DNA of 64,000 bases, taken from NCBI GenBank assembly GCA_000004985.1, contig GG738880.1; one strand, written 5' to 3'. The notes beneath the pieces are model-generated. The model was not told the DNA's origin and searched no databases. It saw only the letters and a program-made list of their open reading frames with translations. Positions within the stretch are counted from its first letter, which is position 1. Each line of letters starts with the position of its first letter. This document shows positions 18,097-25,544 of this stretch, piece by piece. This DNA comes from Naegleria gruberi (taxonomy: Eukaryota). The translations under genes were made by a program, and so were the position numbers.

Positions 18097-19628
18097 ATTG
18101 GAATTTTTATTTTGAAAATGTTAAAATAATTAAATTAATTTTAAATTAATTCAATTTTATTTTTCTTTAAGGAATTGAGTTTGAATGACAATGGAACACG
18201 AAACCATGTAGATGCACTATTTCACAATTTACAATAAATTGTAGTTAACTACAGTATAGTTCTGTAAGTAACAACTGAGTGTTGACAAATTCTCTCAAAT
18301 AAACAAAAATTAAACAGATTAGTTTTTTATGTCTCTCCTTTCTCAATTAAATAAAAGGTGATATCGTTGCTAATTTGAAAATCATGGTCTGCATCCACAC
18401 ATTCACAAATACAACCGGGATTTAGCTACCCCAATGACAATAATTTCCAAATTTGCTCCCACAACCAAATCCACCCAATTAATACATCTCAATACCCAGA
18501 ATTTTCCACTTTTCCTCATTTCTCTCATTTCTCTCCAATGAGTTGAACCACTCGAGAACTGTAAATTTTTCACAAACCTCTGAAAAACTGTAAATAGCTT
18601 TTATACAAGGAACAACACTAAAATATAAGAAACTAAAAGAGACAATCGATACCATCTCACAGCAACTCTCAATGGAATGGATTGTTCCAAAAAGGCAAAC
18701 TGACTGTTCGTTTATTTGATTGACAAGACTCTTCGACGAGACCACAAATATCACGATTTCATTTACAAACAGTAGGCGGACTTTAATTATCAACTGGTTT
18801 AGGAAGAATGTATTTGTTTATCGTATGGTGATACTGTGAGTGACAATGCAAAAGTGATTGCAATAATCAGAAAGGATTTGCTAACATATTCGAAAGTTGG
18901 TGATTCGCTATGGATGCAGAACATGGTGGTAATTAGATAGGATTCGCATTAGACTGAATAGCTAACTGGTTAATAAAAATATGAGTTTGCATTCTCCATT
19001 TATTTTCATGCTTGGACGAATCCTCTAAGTACTATAATCGATTCTTATTTGTATTCCTTTTCTTCTCTACAGTTTTCATAAGCTTCTTTATGTACTGTTT
19101 GAAGAATATCTACTGTTGTTGTTATAATTGATAATCGTCATTGACCCAACCAAATACGAATCATTTCGAATACCTTGACCCAACTTCCAATCCTACAACC
19201 GACAAAAGAGTTTAAGAAATTAACAACTCAAAACCTAAATGACATTGAAATTTTCGAATAGATTAGGCAGCCATAGACAAACGTTCCCCAATAAGAAGTG
19301 AACTCACATTAAGGAAGCCAAACACTCACAAACTAAAGTCAACACCTTCATCACAATTAAAAACAATCTTTCGTTTAAAAAGTAACCTGGCAACCGAAAA
19401 GCTACCCGCCAAATAGTTTTAAAATGGAAGCACTATTCTCTACTTGTCACTTTTCTGGACGCTTCGTTTTTTGACGGACACAAATCCATGCTGGGTTGAT
19501 TTTTGGTTTGTTTGGAATGTGCTTGGTGACTCTTCATTGTGGCGTTGTTAAATTTCTTACCAAACCTCCTCAATTGCGCTTCTGAACATTAAAAAAACAA
19601 ATAACAGTTTCGAATAGATTTAAACCGA

Positions 19629-20702
19629 ATGATGATGATGATGGTTGAAAATTCAATGAATGTCCATTCTCATGCCACCTGCACCACAACTTCAACAGAA
19701 GAAGATGATGGTCAACAAGAAATATCTACCTGTGGAGTTTCTTCCATGTCCTCTCCACATGTTTCGAATAATTCTTCCTCCTCATATTCTTCCTCTACTA
19801 ATAGTGAGGAAGAGGACCAAACCAACACTAGATCTACATGTAGAAGAATAACTAAACAACACAAATCATCTAACCAATCTCCAAGTAAGAAGAAGAAAAG
19901 ATCCTTGATTGGTGAAATTGTTATGAACCAAAGTCAACCAATGGTTGGTCAATTAATTTCTCAACATCAACAACAAGCAATTGTTTTTGAAAACTTTGAA
20001 GGCAGAAAGTCTTCAGCAGCTACTACTAATGGTATCAGTCATATTCCTGGTACATTTTCCTTTTCACACAAGGTTGAGAATAGTCAACTTTCGAATAATG
20101 AGCAACCAGCAGCAAAATCAAACATGTGTGAGGTAATTCTTTCGAATTGGAAGAGTCGTTCAGATACAAGACAGTGGATTAAGAAATGTATTGGTCCACA
20201 AGATAAGAAAAAGAAGGTTAAGAAGGATCATCAATGGTTTCAATCTTCGAATAGTCAACTTTCGAATAGTCCACCATTTTGCCAACCAAGTCCAACAGTT
20301 GTTTTCAACAATCAATCTTCACCAATTATAACTTCCAAGTTTGATAGAAAGCCATCATCAAACAGTATTTCTACCACTAACGTTTGGTCAGATTCGTATA
20401 TTCATACTACATGTTTAATTCCTGGTCAAAGAAAGGTAGCCAAGTCAACTACACCAGTGATGGCTTCACCACAACAATTACAATCGATTTCAACACAATC
20501 AGTGAGTTACCCAACCGTTTCTCATCAACACTACCAACAACAACAATATTCGAATCAATATGAAAATGTTTCCTCTTCGAATATTGGTAATAATCCATGG
20601 TTGAATGATATTACTTCAACATCCAATGTATTATCAGATGTTTCTGATAAACAATTCGCTTTGCCAAGCTTCAGAGAGTTTGTTTCCACTTTAGGCCTGT
20701 AA
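19629..20702 (+). CDS. Ser/Gln/Asn-rich low-complexity protein with basic patches; function unknown
   Basis: A 357-codon ORF that starts with (ATG)5 and has consistent codon usage. I see no recognisable domain. Upstream exons in the 18.1-19.6 kb non-coding island cannot be excluded. Confidence 0.4.
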   Translation: MMMMMVENSMNVHSHATCTTTSTEEDDGQQEISTCGVSSMSSPHVSNNSSSSYSSSTNSEEEDQTNTRSTCRRITKQHKSSNQSPSKKKKRSLIGEIVMNQSQPMVGQLISQHQQQAIVFENFEGRKSSAATTNGISHIPGTFSFSHKVENSQLSNNEQPAAKSNMCEVILSNWKSRSDTRQWIKKCIGPQDKKKKVKKDHQWFQSSNSQLSNSPPFCQPSPTVVFNNQSSPIITSKFDRKPSSNSISTTNVWSDSYIHTTCLIPGQRKVAKSTTPVMASPQQLQSISTQSVSYPTVSHQHYQQQQYSNQYENVSSSNIGNNPWLNDITSTSNVLSDVSDKQFALPSFREFVSTLGL

Positions 20703-21042
20703 ATAAACAACAATACAATTTTGATACAACAACAATAAATGAACTGATACAGTTGCCGTTTTATCACTGATTAGAGATTGATGTTTTACAATCATGTCTA
20801 TCCACATAGATTCGATTTGATGAAATCTTGTTTCTATTATCCCACATTATTTGATAAAGAGAAGTATTCGTAGATTCGACAATCTTGCTAGATTAGTTGG
20901 AAAACAATAAGGATTGATTTAGAATAAATCAGTGAGAGAAAATTATTTAATAATTACAATAAATTAAACAACAAGTTCAAAAGGATTAAACTTGCATATA
21001 TCATAAATCGATATCTATTTAAATATGGAAATTGTCCACCAA

Positions 21043-22380
21043 TTAAAGGGAGTAACCAAGATCATTCAAGAGATTAGCAATAGCAACCATTTGATCACCC
21101 TTCTTTGTAGCATATTTAGCATTTGAGTAACTGTGAAAAACAATGTTAGAATATTTGAAAAAAAACTTTGAAATACTTACCCGAACCAATCGAAACATCC
21201 TTGAGCATTCATTGGGTTAAAGTAAGAAACACCAACTTGTGGATAGACAACAATGATATTGTTGATTTCAGCATGCTTATTGTAACCAGCATTGGAAACA
21301 TAGGCAGTACCAATAACAGAAGCACCTTGATTACAACCGTGGAAAGCAACAGAAACCTTACATTCAGCACCTTGTTGACAAGCAGTTGGAATGTAAATAT
21401 AACCAGTATCAGAGAAACTGCTGGCACTGTATTTACCAGATTGCTTATAAGTGAACAAGTTAGAAGAGACAGCACTACCACCTTCCTTGAAATCTGGGTA
21501 AACTTGCTTGAAGAAAGCACCAGCACTATCAACATTACAATTGTTAATGTATGGAGATCCCAAATATGAACATGAGTTACCATAGTCATTGGTGACCATT
21601 GAGTGTTGAGCAGGAGTGTTAAAATCAGTCTTGATGTTGGCCTTATCAACACCAAAAGTTGAGGTATATTGTTCAGCAAGCTTGGCCATAACACCAGGAG
21701 CAACAACTGAGTCTTGAGTACCAGAGAAGAGGTAAATCTTGTGATTCTTAACATTGTCAATTGGGTCAATTGAACCATCCTTAGCATAGGCAGCAACTTG
21801 ACCACTGATTGAACTCAATGAAATTGAGCTTGGTGACTTCATACAACCCATCAAGGCATTCATCATTTGACCTTGAGCACACTATCATGGTTACCACACA
21901 TGGACAAAACAAGAGATTGTTGGATAACACAGATATTTTCAAAATAGAGAAATTTCCAACAAATAGTTTGTCAGTACAGGAATATTTTCCGAATTTTCCA
22001 AACAGAATCATCAGCAAGGATTAAAATTCGCGAAATATTTTAGCACATCATCACAACAGGATATTTGAAAATTTAATAATACCAATAGCAAAAAAACAAT
22101 CCACAGTAGAAGAATAGCAACAAGATGATGATTAGATTACTATCTAATTGATTGTTAAACTTACATAATATGGACCTCCGGCAACAATACCACTTCCCTT
22201 TACAGACTTACTGAAGGCAATTTGTGTTTGAACAGCCATAAAACCACCAGCACTAATACCCGACACAGTTAATGAACCTGGTTGAATAGTATACTTCTTG
22301 ACGGCATCAGCGTGAATATTAATAATGAGACTTGTAGTGAACAACAAGACAAGAATCAACCTCGTGGAAAGATTTGACAT
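21043..22380 (-). CDS. Secreted esterase of the PHB-depolymerase (esterase_PHB/LpqC-like) family, with a permuted (type-2) catalytic-domain order. Proposed exons: 22380..22165, 21881..21181, 21130..21043.
   Basis: Exon 1 has a signal peptide ([24 protein letters not shown]) and the lipase box [11 protein letters not shown]...[11 protein letters not shown]. An intron (GTAAGT at 22164 to the AG at 21882) joins it to [13 protein letters not shown]...[11 protein letters not shown]...[23 protein letters not shown] 50-nt intron then leads to a short final exon ([29 protein letters not shown]). The exon lengths 216, 701 and 88 nt are phase-consistent. Confidence 0.65.
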
Positions 22381-23309
22381 TTTTTAAACGTGTGCTTATT
22401 CGTTGAGCGATTTTTTTAAAAATGAAAAGCGAATCCGCGAATTGTTTCCCGCTCTAAGACAGCATGTTGATTTTTTGTCTTTTATTTCCCCAATCGAGAC
22501 CTGGTCATTACAATGAGCACTAAAACTCCTTTTTGCAGGAGTTTGTTTCTATGAACAAGATGATTCTTCATATTTGTTGTTGTATTGGATTAGAGTTGTG
22601 AACTAAATTTTACAATCTAATAGCACACATGTGTGTAGCTTAATATTTTTTATTGGGTATTGGCGATAAGAAATATCTCTTGTATTAATTTGATTATGTG
22701 AATTGTGTCAAGATCTGTATTCACATGCGAATCTGAACTTTACTTTTCTGGTAGGTTTTTAGTAATGTTAAACATGTAGTAATAAACTTGATTACAAGGT
22801 CAAATTTCTTACAAAAAAGCCAGATAATAGTGTGGTCACCCTTCTGTTACTTGATTTTCATCATGATGAGAAGAATATTTATTTGTATTGAAAGAAACAA
22901 ATCAGATTAAATTAGTCAAGATAGAGAAATGGATCATATCGATTCTGATTGATATTAATGGTGATTTTGATCGTTGTATCACCCGAATCGTTCCTTCTTG
23001 TAGTCCAACAGTTTTTAAATCCAAGGATTGAATATTCTTCATTGTGAAATGGAAAAGAATGTAGCTTTGATATCATTATTCATTCTCTAACAGACAACGT
23101 GTTGATTATATGCTGATTGTCTCAAGCGATTTTTCTCCAGTTTAGTCTTGTTTAGTTGAAAAAGCTTTCCAAACCAACCTTAATCTATCAAGAAGTATTA
23201 CAAAATCATCTTTGATCCGAATGAACTTTTGAACAAGGAACTCTAACTTTGAATAAATAAGGCGCGAAAATCACAATACTGTTCCAACACAAAAAACAAC
23301 TCAAAAAAA

Positions 23310-25544
23310 ATGATTCCACCTCCGCCACCACCACTGAGTGGTTCATCACCATCAACTAATCGACTTCCACCACCTCCCCCTTCTTCTTTGATTTCAATTC
23401 CGAAGCAACCAAAGAAGAAAATTATAGAAAAGAAAAAACCAGAAGAAGAAATCAAGCAGCAAATTGATGAGGAAATTGTTCAGCAGCATCAGCAATTTGT
23501 GGTGGATGAATCAATGGTGGTTAAGGATTTGTGTTCGTTATCGGGAGTTAATCCATTGTATAGTGATTTGAAGATTTTGTTGGTGGCTACATTTTCAAGA
23601 CCAAATCATAGTGCTAAGGTTTTGGAAGAATCAATTCAAAATTCAATTCTGGAAAGTGGTAGAACTCCTGATATTGTATTGACCCCTGAAGGTTGGCATG
23701 CAAGTCCACTCATGTCAACACCTGATAGAAATATTGTAATGAATAAGGAATTGGAGGGAATGTGTCAAGTAATGAAGAATCACAAATGTTATGGATTTAT
23801 TGGAGTGAAGGTGTGGGCAGTTGATGAAAAATTAAAGCCAATCAACAAGTACTACAACTCAATGATAGTAATCAATCCAGATGGTGAAGTGTTGGGCTGT
23901 TACCGAAAGAGAGTACCAACCAGTGCTGAGAGTAGTACTCCTGGTGATAGGATTGGAATTTTTGATACCATCTATGGAAGGATTGCAGTATTGATTTGTT
24001 TTGATATTGAGAATCAAGTAATTTTGGATGAAGTTTTGGCTTACAAACCATTCCTTATTTTAAATCCAACTTATATTGGAGGAGTTGGTTTGCATGATAA
24101 CACACTTTCAAAGAAATCTACTCTAATGACTGAAAATGAGGAGAAATCGAGAAGATTTCAAGTGAAAATCTCTCTTGAAGCTCTTGGCAGAAATTTTGAA
24201 AAAGTTTGCAAAGATAATAATGTGACCATTCTAAGATGTGACACTCCAGTTCACTATGGAGGAAGAGGAACTCACCAATTGATGACACCTTATTCTACCG
24301 TTTACCCACCATCATATTATGCAGAGAATTCATTTTCTTTCTATGTGGATAGAGTTGGTGTGGTTGGTAATAATTTTGCTGAAAATACTGAACCTCCAGA
24401 AAGAGAAAGAACTCACAATGAAGACAATGTTGGTCCAAGATATACCTTGTTTAGTAATTCTCATCAGGATGTTGTTTTGAGGTCAGAAAACATCAATCCA
24501 AATTTCAAGGTTACATTCTTCAATCACAACAGACTCATTTGTTCTGATGAAAGAAGAATTACAGTTGTAAATACAGATATTATGGCATGTGAAAATTTCT
24601 CACTGGATCATGTATCACTTTCAGTTGATTCAGATGGAAATTTCAAAGTGAATGATTCTAAAATTGATGAAGAAATTAGAATTGTAGATATTTGGACTAG
24701 ATTTGATAAGAAACACCTTATTGTCTTGATGAGTGATGGAAATGTTGGATTATTCAAAGTTTTAGACGAGGAACGTTTGAAGGTTGCTAATAATTCCATT
24801 TTGTGTTTGGAGAAACAATTCAAATGGGATTGCTCTCTTGTTGATCCAAATTCGAGAATTATTGCTCCAAATAATAACATGCTATTCATTGCCTCAAGCA
24901 AGAGTATTGTACAATTAGGCAATTTGAGCGGTGGAGAATTTATTGGAAAGACATTTTTATTGGAGAATGAAGTTTCCAAGCATGTTAGTATCTCTGATAG
25001 CATGATTGAGTACCTTTCCCTTAATAACAAATCAATCAGCTTGGTGTTATTGGATCTTTCAACAGGAAACTCCTCCATTTCCAGCACTTTAAATTTAGAA
25101 GAAATTTCTTCAAAAAGATTAGAATCATCTCTCGAGCCAAATTCTTTCATTCTCACTGAATTCGACCCAAGCAATCAGAATGTAATCTCCCTCACCCCTC
25201 TCAAAGTTCAAAACCATCAAATAAGCATTCAACCTAACCATGTAAAATTACCAGAAAATTCCTCCTCTATCATATCCCTCAATTCCTCCAAATTCATTTG
25301 TGGTCAACAAGATGGCACTCTCAAATTATTGGATTCCTCATGCTCTTCTGATTTGATAAGACATAAATTCCATCCTTATCCATCCCTCAAATCAACACGA
25401 GTTGTTTCACTCATCCATGATAAACAAAATGGTAGATTGATATCAATTCATCAACACAAAACACAACCAGATGGATACTTACTCTGTATGGCCAAGTTTG
25501 GAAATAATAGATTTGTGGCCAATCTCACTACTCTCTTTCAATAA
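23310..25544 (+). CDS. Carbon-nitrogen hydrolase (nitrilase superfamily) domain protein with a Pro-rich N-terminus and a long C-terminal extension of unknown function
   Basis: A 744-codon ORF. The CN-hydrolase catalytic triad context is present: E in DIVLTPEGW, K in GCYRKRVP and C in RIAVLICFDIE. The C-terminal 450 residues are Ser/Asn/Leu-rich and look like a beta-strand repeat, but I do not recognise them. Confidence 0.65.
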   Translation: MIPPPPPPLSGSSPSTNRLPPPPPSSLISIPKQPKKKIIEKKKPEEEIKQQIDEEIVQQHQQFVVDESMVVKDLCSLSGVNPLYSDLKILLVATFSRPNHSAKVLEESIQNSILESGRTPDIVLTPEGWHASPLMSTPDRNIVMNKELEGMCQVMKNHKCYGFIGVKVWAVDEKLKPINKYYNSMIVINPDGEVLGCYRKRVPTSAESSTPGDRIGIFDTIYGRIAVLICFDIENQVILDEVLAYKPFLILNPTYIGGVGLHDNTLSKKSTLMTENEEKSRRFQVKISLEALGRNFEKVCKDNNVTILRCDTPVHYGGRGTHQLMTPYSTVYPPSYYAENSFSFYVDRVGVVGNNFAENTEPPERERTHNEDNVGPRYTLFSNSHQDVVLRSENINPNFKVTFFNHNRLICSDERRITVVNTDIMACENFSLDHVSLSVDSDGNFKVNDSKIDEEIRIVDIWTRFDKKHLIVLMSDGNVGLFKVLDEERLKVANNSILCLEKQFKWDCSLVDPNSRIIAPNNNMLFIASSKSIVQLGNLSGGEFIGKTFLLENEVSKHVSISDSMIEYLSLNNKSISLVLLDLSTGNSSISSTLNLEEISSKRLESSLEPNSFILTEFDPSNQNVISLTPLKVQNHQISIQPNHVKLPENSSSIISLNSSKFICGQQDGTLKLLDSSCSSDLIRHKFHPYPSLKSTRVVSLIHDKQNGRLISIHQHKTQPDGYLLCMAKFGNNRFVANLTTLFQ

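Follow-up and report, generated by a model that had tools for sequence, protein, structure and literature searches.

Introduction

Type-2 polyhydroxyalkanoate (PHA) depolymerases are defined by an oxyanion hole that lies on the C-terminal side of the catalytic triad. In the DED (PHA Depolymerase Engineering Database) all members of this type carry a hydrophobic x1 residue in the lipase box Gx1Sx2G, and those that have been characterised experimentally are polyhydroxybutyrate (PHB) depolymerases (PMC2666664). More recently such enzymes were described in more than 66 animal and 18-19 protist species (Zeidler et al., Nat Ecol Evol 2026, PMC13642032). According to the main text of that paper, the enzymes of Olavius, Amphimedon, an earthworm and a springtail degrade PHB, the Amphimedon enzyme degrades both PHB and PHB/polyhydroxyvalerate (PHB/PHV) in vitro, and bacterivores are argued to use type-2 PHA depolymerases for harvesting the storage polyester of bacteria. 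Here we analyse a gene of this kind in the amoeboflagellate Naegleria gruberi, located at positions 21043-22380 of a stretch of 64,000 nucleotides (nt) from contig GG738880.1 (assembly GCA_000004985.1), which we refer to as the window. An earlier note, made from the letters of the window, had read this locus as a secreted esterase of the PHB-depolymerase family with a type-2 (permuted) order of motifs, possibly derived from a bacterial gene and domesticated with two introns. Our analysis indicates that the locus is probably the gene for a single-domain, extracellular-type, type-2 short-chain-length PHA (PHB) depolymerase that would digest the PHB of prey bacteria. Naegleria is not named in the main text of Zeidler et al. 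(PMC13642032), to which our check of that paper extended. We found no paper on Naegleria together with PHB or hydroxybutyrate depolymerase, and none of the papers that pair Naegleria with polyhydroxyalkanoate concerns this enzyme, judging by title or abstract.

Family membership and catalytic residues

The gene lies on the minus strand and consists of three exons (Table 1). Splicing of the reverse complement gave a coding sequence (CDS) of 1005 nt, made up of 334 codons and a TAA stop at 21045-21043, whose reading frame is uninterrupted and whose start and stop codons coincide exactly with the ends of the interval delineated by the earlier note. The 334-residue product is identical at every residue to the public protein EFC42385.1 / XP_002675129.1 / UniProt D2VLH4 of N. 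gruberi NEG-M. All the motifs quoted in the earlier note were found in the spliced protein in the order stated there, including VAGGPYY|CAQG, which spans the junction of exons 1 and 2, and the NP..GCFDWFG block, which corresponds to residues 293-306.

Assignment to the PHB-depolymerase family, as the note had proposed, was borne out by two matches along the full length of the catalytic domain. The NCBIfam model NF050059 (extracellular type-2 dPHAscl depolymerase, catalytic domain) scored 362.3 bits, its curated cut-off being 280 (E 2e-108), with residues 28-330 aligned to profile positions 2-305 of 305, and a phmmer search of the PDB returned the PHB depolymerase of Penicillium funiculosum (2D80/2D81) as the only strong sequence relative of known structure (E 7e-51, residues 27-325). 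The note had also suggested a search with the hidden Markov models Esterase_phb and PHB_depo_C; here the family was detected by the NCBIfam models while these two Pfam models stayed silent, PHB_depo_C finding no match in either the native sequence or a re-permuted one (see below), for which Pfam gave only sub-threshold Peptidase_S9 and Abhydrolase matches.

The catalytic residues could be assigned from the alignment with 2D80, whose Ser39, Asp121 and His155 align with Ser43, Asp129 and His165 of the Naegleria protein; in 2D81, Ser39 has been replaced by Ala. Cys255 is aligned to Cys250, which belongs to the HGC block of 2D80, and Trp304 to Trp307, and the eight cysteines of the mature protein are all common to the two enzymes. 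Across an alignment of 54 sequences Asp129, His165 and His253-Gly254-Cys255 were invariant and Ser43 was conserved in at least 90%. The x1 position of the lipase box is occupied by the hydrophobic Ile42. In 2D80, Cys250 reportedly forms the oxyanion hole together with the residue that follows the nucleophile, and Trp307 is said to recognise the adjacent ester of the substrate. By analogy we take the backbone NH of Cys255 to be the second oxyanion-hole donor, and Trp304 is the counterpart of the substrate-recognising Trp307.

Circular permutation of the catalytic domain

The functional residues follow one another along the chain as S43 < D129 < H165 < H253-G-C255, so that the oxyanion HGC is C-terminal to the whole triad. 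Models and structures with the type-1 order matched the protein only in swapped pieces. The type-1 model NF050058 scored 97.0 bits against a cut-off of 150, in two swapped stretches that included residues 17-174 at model positions 86-232, and TIGR01840 (esterase_phb) scored 58.2 bits against a cut-off of 107.85, again in two swapped stretches, including residues 233-322 at positions 2-81. The feruloyl esterase 8IY8, which has the type-1 order, was likewise swapped, with residues 19-163 aligned to 101-243 of its chain and residues 232-287 to 24-74. We then re-permuted the protein in silico by moving residues 228-334 ahead of residues 25-227. The re-permuted protein gave single contiguous type-1 matches (5-257 to 10-232 of 276; 6-237 to 2-205 of 213), and its match to the type-2 model NF050059 broke in two. 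As the swapped type-1 matches became contiguous upon re-permutation, this experiment demonstrates the circular permutation directly. The permuted order that the earlier note had recognised is therefore confirmed by the chain order, by NF050059, by the alignment to 2D80 and by the re-permutation, and the best matches are not to proteins of the ordinary order: the type-1 models stayed below their cut-offs and the type-2 model exceeded its own.

Predicted fold

The fold was modelled on the orthologue of Naegleria lovaniensis, which is 77% identical to the N. gruberi protein by BLAST and 74% by MAFFT, with no insertions or deletions after the leader. The AlphaFold2 model, built from a 53-sequence alignment, had a mean predicted local distance difference test score (pLDDT) of 95.8 and a predicted template-modelling score (pTM) of 0.92. 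When the model was compared to the PDB by Foldseek, the only strong matches were 2D81/2D80, with template-modelling (TM) scores of 0.83/0.88, a root-mean-square deviation of 2.1-2.2 A and E ~1e-33. The type-1 PHB depolymerase 8DAJ/9BYU and other alpha/beta hydrolases of the ordinary order reached TM scores of about 0.2-0.3 over roughly half of the chain, as would be expected for a permuted fold when the superposition depends on sequence order. The predicted structure is a circularly permuted alpha/beta-hydrolase fold, as in 2D80.

Predicted secretion and probable substrate

The N-terminal leader consists of a basic Arg7, a hydrophobic core of 14 residues at positions 8-21 and a small-residue cleavage-type motif, I-H-A|DAV. 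Its hydropathy reaches a maximum of 2.6 (11-residue window), and homology to the mature enzymes starts only at residue 27. An N-terminal signal peptide is likely from these features, in agreement with the earlier note, which had described the enzyme as secreted. Downstream, the protein ends right after the catalytic domain, and neither PF00041 nor any other additional domain was found by Pfam. The classical bacterial architecture, in which a fibronectin type III (Fn3) or Thr-rich linker leads to a C-terminal substrate-binding domain, is thus not that of the Naegleria protein, which in this respect is like the single-domain enzymes of fungi and animals.

From these data we propose the following scheme. 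A signal peptide of about 24 residues would direct the protein to the secretory/endolysosomal route, yielding a mature enzyme of about 310 residues with up to four disulfides formed by the eight conserved cysteines. The triad Ser43-Asp129-His165 would cut the ester bonds of PHB (EC 3.1.1.75), with the backbone amides of Ala44 and of Cys255 in the HGC block stabilising the tetrahedral intermediate and Trp304 helping to position the neighbouring ester. The most likely role of such an enzyme would be the digestion of PHB granules of phagocytosed bacteria, supplying the amoeba with 3-hydroxybutyrate. The earlier note had similarly suggested that a bacterivore digests bacterial PHB. The same role is argued for protists and animals in the main text of Zeidler et al. 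(PMC13642032), and for Naegleria we infer it, together with the localisation of the enzyme and with PHB as what it acts on.

Several points weigh against this reading. The Naegleria enzyme has no counterpart of the substrate-binding domain by which the bacterial dPHAscl depolymerases dock on PHB, and the heterolobosean members of the family are known from sequence alone. NF050059 is a 'hypothetical equivalog' model that was built for prokaryotes, and the Pfam model PF10503 (Esterase_PHB) matched neither the native nor the re-permuted sequence. The triad was assigned by sequence alignment and the signal peptide was judged by inspection and hydropathy, and the structural model is that of the N. 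lovaniensis orthologue rather than of the N. gruberi protein itself.

The absence of a substrate-binding domain and the sequence-based knowledge of the heterolobosean members would also suit a secreted esterase of the same fold that acts on something other than PHB granules, such as an esterase of the feruloyl or acetyl-xylan type, a polyesterase resembling cutinase, or an enzyme of short complexed PHB or of lipids. The esterase_phb superfamily includes feruloyl esterases, and one of them, 8IY8, was matched at E 5e-6. However, in this match only residues 19-163 align well, the second stretch having E >1 and a swapped position, so that the similarity covers half of the protein and concerns an enzyme of the type-1 order; the feruloyl esterase activity that the earlier note had offered as an alternative is accordingly weakly founded. 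In addition, the score of NF050059 exceeds its cut-off by 82 bits, and neither the type-1 nor the esterase_phb model reaches its own. All tested single-domain relatives (from P. funiculosum, Amphimedon, earthworm and springtail) are PHB depolymerases, active relatives being found on either side of the tree, and both the substrate-recognising Trp and the hydrophobic x1 are conserved. We therefore regard a substrate other than PHB as rather improbable and continue with PHB depolymerase as the preferred assignment.

Evolutionary origin

The closest matches to the depolymerase are found in N. lovaniensis (77% identity), whose 90% cluster also includes N. fowleri FDP41_006893, and in Willaertia magna (58%). 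Two further paralogue lineages, at 47-48% identity, are present in N. lovaniensis and N. fowleri, so that paralogue lineages in Naegleria number up to three, the pathogen N. fowleri among their carriers. The taxonomic frame of the earlier note, which had looked to amoebozoan genomes, needs correction: N. gruberi belongs to Heterolobosea, within Discoba, and the orthologues are in Naegleria and Willaertia. The N. lovaniensis gene contains three introns, the first of which lies at the same site and in the same phase 0 as intron 1 of N. gruberi, after GGPY[YD]. N. gruberi lacks the other two, which follow residue 132 and, immediately, HGC, and intron 2 of N. gruberi is absent from the orthologues of N. 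lovaniensis and Willaertia. The W. magna orthologue is intronless, the whole protein being encoded in one open reading frame (ORF).

Neighbour-joining (NJ) trees were built with Kimura distances and 200-300 bootstraps. The three Naegleria orthologues grouped together in 100% of the bootstraps, these with Willaertia in 95%, and all seven heterolobosean sequences in 60%. No bacterial sequence nested with the heterolobosean clade in these trees. The nearest sequences outside Heterolobosea are those of the jakobid Andalucia godoyi and other single-domain proteins, at 44-50% identity. Three such proteins could be traced to long metagenome contigs, and all three were located among eukaryotic genes (Arf, UEV/RING, Atg4-type peptidase, EMG1, cofilin). 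Tetrahymena, the sponge Amphimedon, a diplonemid and a prokinetoplastid have further named eukaryotic homologues. A type-2 enzyme was thus present in all the Discoba lineages that were sampled (Heterolobosea, the jakobid Andalucia, prokinetoplastid and diplonemid), and it clusters with the ciliate and animal enzymes. The best bacterial relatives, among 185,579 prokaryotic species genomes, are mainly from Burkholderiales and are 33-44% identical. The split between a protist and animal cluster on one side and bacteria with P. funiculosum on the other had a bootstrap of only 23%, and relationships beyond the heterolobosean clade are not resolved by NJ. The phylogeny that the earlier note had called for thus recovers a heterolobosean clade, at 60%.

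The earlier note had considered the gene bacterial-derived and domesticated by introns. As a recent event, i.e. a horizontal acquisition from a bacterium followed by intron gain, this would accord with the numerical predominance of bacteria in the family (at least 565 bacterial loci, mostly from Burkholderiales), with the poor support of the deep nodes that separate protists and animals from bacteria, and with the intronless Willaertia gene and the differing intron positions of the Naegleria species, which speak for recent intron turnover. Yet the orthologues in N. lovaniensis, N. fowleri and W. magna and the additional paralogue lineages place the gene before the split of Naegleria and Willaertia, the site and phase of intron 1 as well as one flanking gene are common to N. 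gruberi and N. lovaniensis, and the G+C content at third codon positions (GC3) of the CDS, 0.31, is within the 0.29-0.35 of the neighbouring genes. Identity to bacterial proteins does not exceed 44%, as opposed to 45-50% for Andalucia and relatives in eukaryotic genomic contexts, homologues exist in three other Discoba lineages, and bacterial sequences stay outside the heterolobosean clade. There is thus no sign of a recent transfer, which we consider very unlikely. The gene predates the Naegleria-Willaertia split, its nearest relatives outside Heterolobosea are eukaryotic single-domain proteins, and it seems to be one of a widespread group of such proteins. Tentatively, and with somewhat less than even confidence, we suggest that the type-2 PHA depolymerase is an old, vertically inherited digestive enzyme of bacterivorous eukaryotes and that such genes are not recent bacterial gifts.

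Gene structure and genomic setting

The features of the gene are listed in Table 1. Both introns that the earlier note had predicted are present and have canonical GT..AG ends. The note had itself raised the possibility that the exons were mis-joined or that the two motif blocks belonged to different genes; the exons are correctly joined and both blocks lie in one gene, because the spliced product equals the public protein and the Willaertia orthologue is one intronless ORF. An artefact of this sort, or a bacterial contaminant in the assembly, could be invoked on the ground that, in a metagenome contig with this locus, prokaryotic gene calling yields two separate ORFs of 79 and 229 amino acids (aa), and its probability is negligible given that the spliced product is the public N. 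gruberi model, that the protein is collinear with 2D80 and NF050059 across their full length, that the Willaertia gene is a single ORF and the introns are canonical, and that six ORFs near the gene in the window match exactly the N. gruberi proteins encoded on a 416-kb scaffold. Contamination and a pair of separate genes were both rejected on these grounds. A tblastn search found no paralogue of the depolymerase gene elsewhere in the window.

Table 1. Features of the type-2 PHB depolymerase gene of N. gruberi (positions in the window).
Feature	Position	Strand	Basis
Whole gene, 334-aa type-2 PHB depolymerase	21043..22380	-	spliced ORF, identity to XP_002675129.1/D2VLH4, NF050059, 2D80
Exon 1, residues 1-72: signal-like leader, lipase box, VAGGPYY	22165..22380	-	splicing, tblastn
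Predicted signal peptide, residues 1-24	22309..22380	-	by eye and hydropathy profile
Lipase box G41-I-S43-A-G45 (GISAGGFMA = residues 41-49)	22246..22260	-	alignment to 2D80
Nucleophile Ser43, codon AGT	22254-22252	-	aligns with Ser39 of 2D80
Intron 1, 283 nt, GTAAGT..TAG, phase 0, directly after GGPYY	21882..22164	-	splicing
Exon 2, residues 73-306 (last codon split): Asp129, His165, HGC oxyanion block, GCFDW	21181..21881	-	splicing, tblastn
Catalytic Asp129 (GAC), motif SGTQD	21711..21713	-	aligns with Asp121 of 2D80
Catalytic His165 (CAC), motif PAQHS	21603..21605	-	aligns with His155 of 2D80
His253-Gly254-Cys255 oxyanion block	21333..21341	-	alignment to 2D80
G300-C-F-D-W304	21186..21200	-	Trp304 aligns with Trp307 of 2D80
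Intron 2, 50 nt, GTAAGT..CAG, phase 2, within Gly306 codon	21131..21180	-	splicing
Exon 3, residues 306-334 (C-terminal helix) and TAA stop	21043..21130	-	splicing

The public name of XP_002675129.1/D2VLH4 is "fibronectin, type-like protein", and no Fn3 domain was found in the protein by a Pfam scan. This misleading name was probably copied from bacterial PhaZ relatives that carry an Fn3 linker. The homologue of Andalucia godoyi bears the same name in truncated form, 'type-like protein'.

The intron content of the orthologues points to rapid turnover, with two introns in N. gruberi, three in N. lovaniensis and none in Willaertia, and only the first position common. Within intron 1, at 21970-22058 on the minus strand, there is a weak match to a C/D-box small nucleolar RNA (snoRNA), Rfam snoU30, whose 26.5 bits lie below the gathering score of 45. 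Its E value was 0.086 in a search of 3.5 kb and would not reach significance in a search of the whole window, in which no Rfam family attained its gathering score. By eye, the candidate has a UGAUGA C box near its 5′ end, CUGA/UGAUGA in its interior and, at 21973-21970, CUGA as a terminal D box. The candidate was not detectable in the homologous intron of N. lovaniensis.

An environmental metagenome contig (ENA ERZ929261, 3624 nt) is 99.0% identical to positions 19146-22751 of the window. Its differences from the NEG-M sequence number 2 in 917 nt of exons 1-2 and 14 in 371 nt of the upstream intergenic region. Five differences fall in intron 1, none of them (0/5) inside the snoRNA candidate.

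The neighbours of the depolymerase gene are ordinary eukaryotic genes, encoding an OCRL-type 5-phosphatase, uL4m, an ethanolamine kinase, and leucine-rich-repeat and F-box/Sel1 proteins. The upstream neighbour is divergently oriented (23310-25544, plus strand) and shares with the depolymerase gene an intergenic region of about 930 nt. It encodes XP_002675058.1, a 'predicted protein' of 744 aa that is much larger than the partial carbon-nitrogen hydrolase domain found in it (PF00795, E 2e-8). On the other side, the plus-strand ORF 19629-20702 encodes a Ser/Gln/Asn-rich protein of 357 aa that starts with MMMMM and has only a sub-threshold SR-25-like match. As its exact translation is absent from the protein collection, the plain ORF must be unlike the public gene model, which is probably D2VLH3. 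A counterpart of this Ser/Gln-rich gene lies downstream of the N. lovaniensis orthologue as well. There, a gene for a 725-aa protein with protein-kinase and Sel1-repeat domains stands between the depolymerase gene and the Ser/Gln-rich gene, whereas in N. gruberi the gap between the two is 340 nt (20703-21042); the kinase/Sel1 gene is a lineage-specific insertion or deletion.

Discussion

Knowledge of the type-2 arrangement and of its crystal structure goes back a long time, and the occurrence of this enzyme class in animals and protists was already reported in 2026 (Zeidler et al., PMC13642032). The locus reveals no new enzyme class, mechanism or permutation and is an ordinary member of a known family. 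What it adds is a well-supported heterolobosean example in a bacterivorous model organism that is genetically accessible, a correction of the misleading public name, and evidence from gene structure and synteny that the gene has long been resident in the Naegleria/Willaertia lineage. PHB can be a large share of bacterial carbon, and predators that are able to digest it consequently matter for microbial food webs and for the turnover of bioplastics. If these depolymerases are indeed old, vertically inherited digestive enzymes, free-living amoeboflagellates would routinely harvest the PHB of their prey, an unmeasured flux of carbon in sediments and soils, for which N. gruberi would offer a tractable model of prey-PHB digestion.

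Comparison with known depolymerases

Type-1 dPHAscl depolymerases and esterase_phb proteins (LpqC-type; TIGR01840, NF050058, 8DAJ, 8IY8) have in common with the Naegleria protein the alpha/beta-hydrolase core and the motifs HGC, GCxDW and GxSxGG, and differ from it in that the order of the motifs along the chain is reversed. The bacterial type-2 dPHAscl depolymerases of Comamonas, Delftia acidovorans, Acidovorax TP4, Caldimonas manganoxidans and Schlegelella share its catalytic domain and motif order at 33-44% identity. These enzymes are longer, about 480-490 aa, as they carry a fibronectin type III linker and a C-terminal substrate-binding domain (PF00041, PF10503, PF18370).

The PHB depolymerase of P. 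funiculosum (2D80/2D81; Hisano et al. 2006) is a secreted single-domain enzyme of about 320 residues, with the same order of Ser, Asp and His followed by HGC. It is approximately 38% identical to the Naegleria protein over the full length, with the triad, the oxyanion Cys, the equivalent of Trp307 and the eight cysteines kept, and differs in having a loop ahead of GCWDW that is 8 residues longer, as well as several small insertions and deletions. In the NJ trees, with weak support, it groups with Burkholderiales-type bacterial sequences and not with the single-domain cluster of protists and animals, in which the Naegleria protein is found. These groupings hint that the fungal and the protist/animal type-2 depolymerases may have separate histories.

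Similar in overall design are the type-2 enzymes of animals and protists described in the main text of Zeidler et al. (2026, PMC13642032), single-domain proteins of about 330 aa with a signal peptide and the same layout of residues. Their nuclear genes contain introns and belong to organisms that feed on bacteria or digest them. The PHA depolymerase of Olavius algarvensis, as given there, has 333 aa and S42/D127/H167/C259, compared to S43/D129/H165/C255 in Naegleria. The active sponge enzyme of Amphimedon queenslandica (XP_003384510.1) is 43-44% identical to the Naegleria protein, and the two fall in the same cluster.

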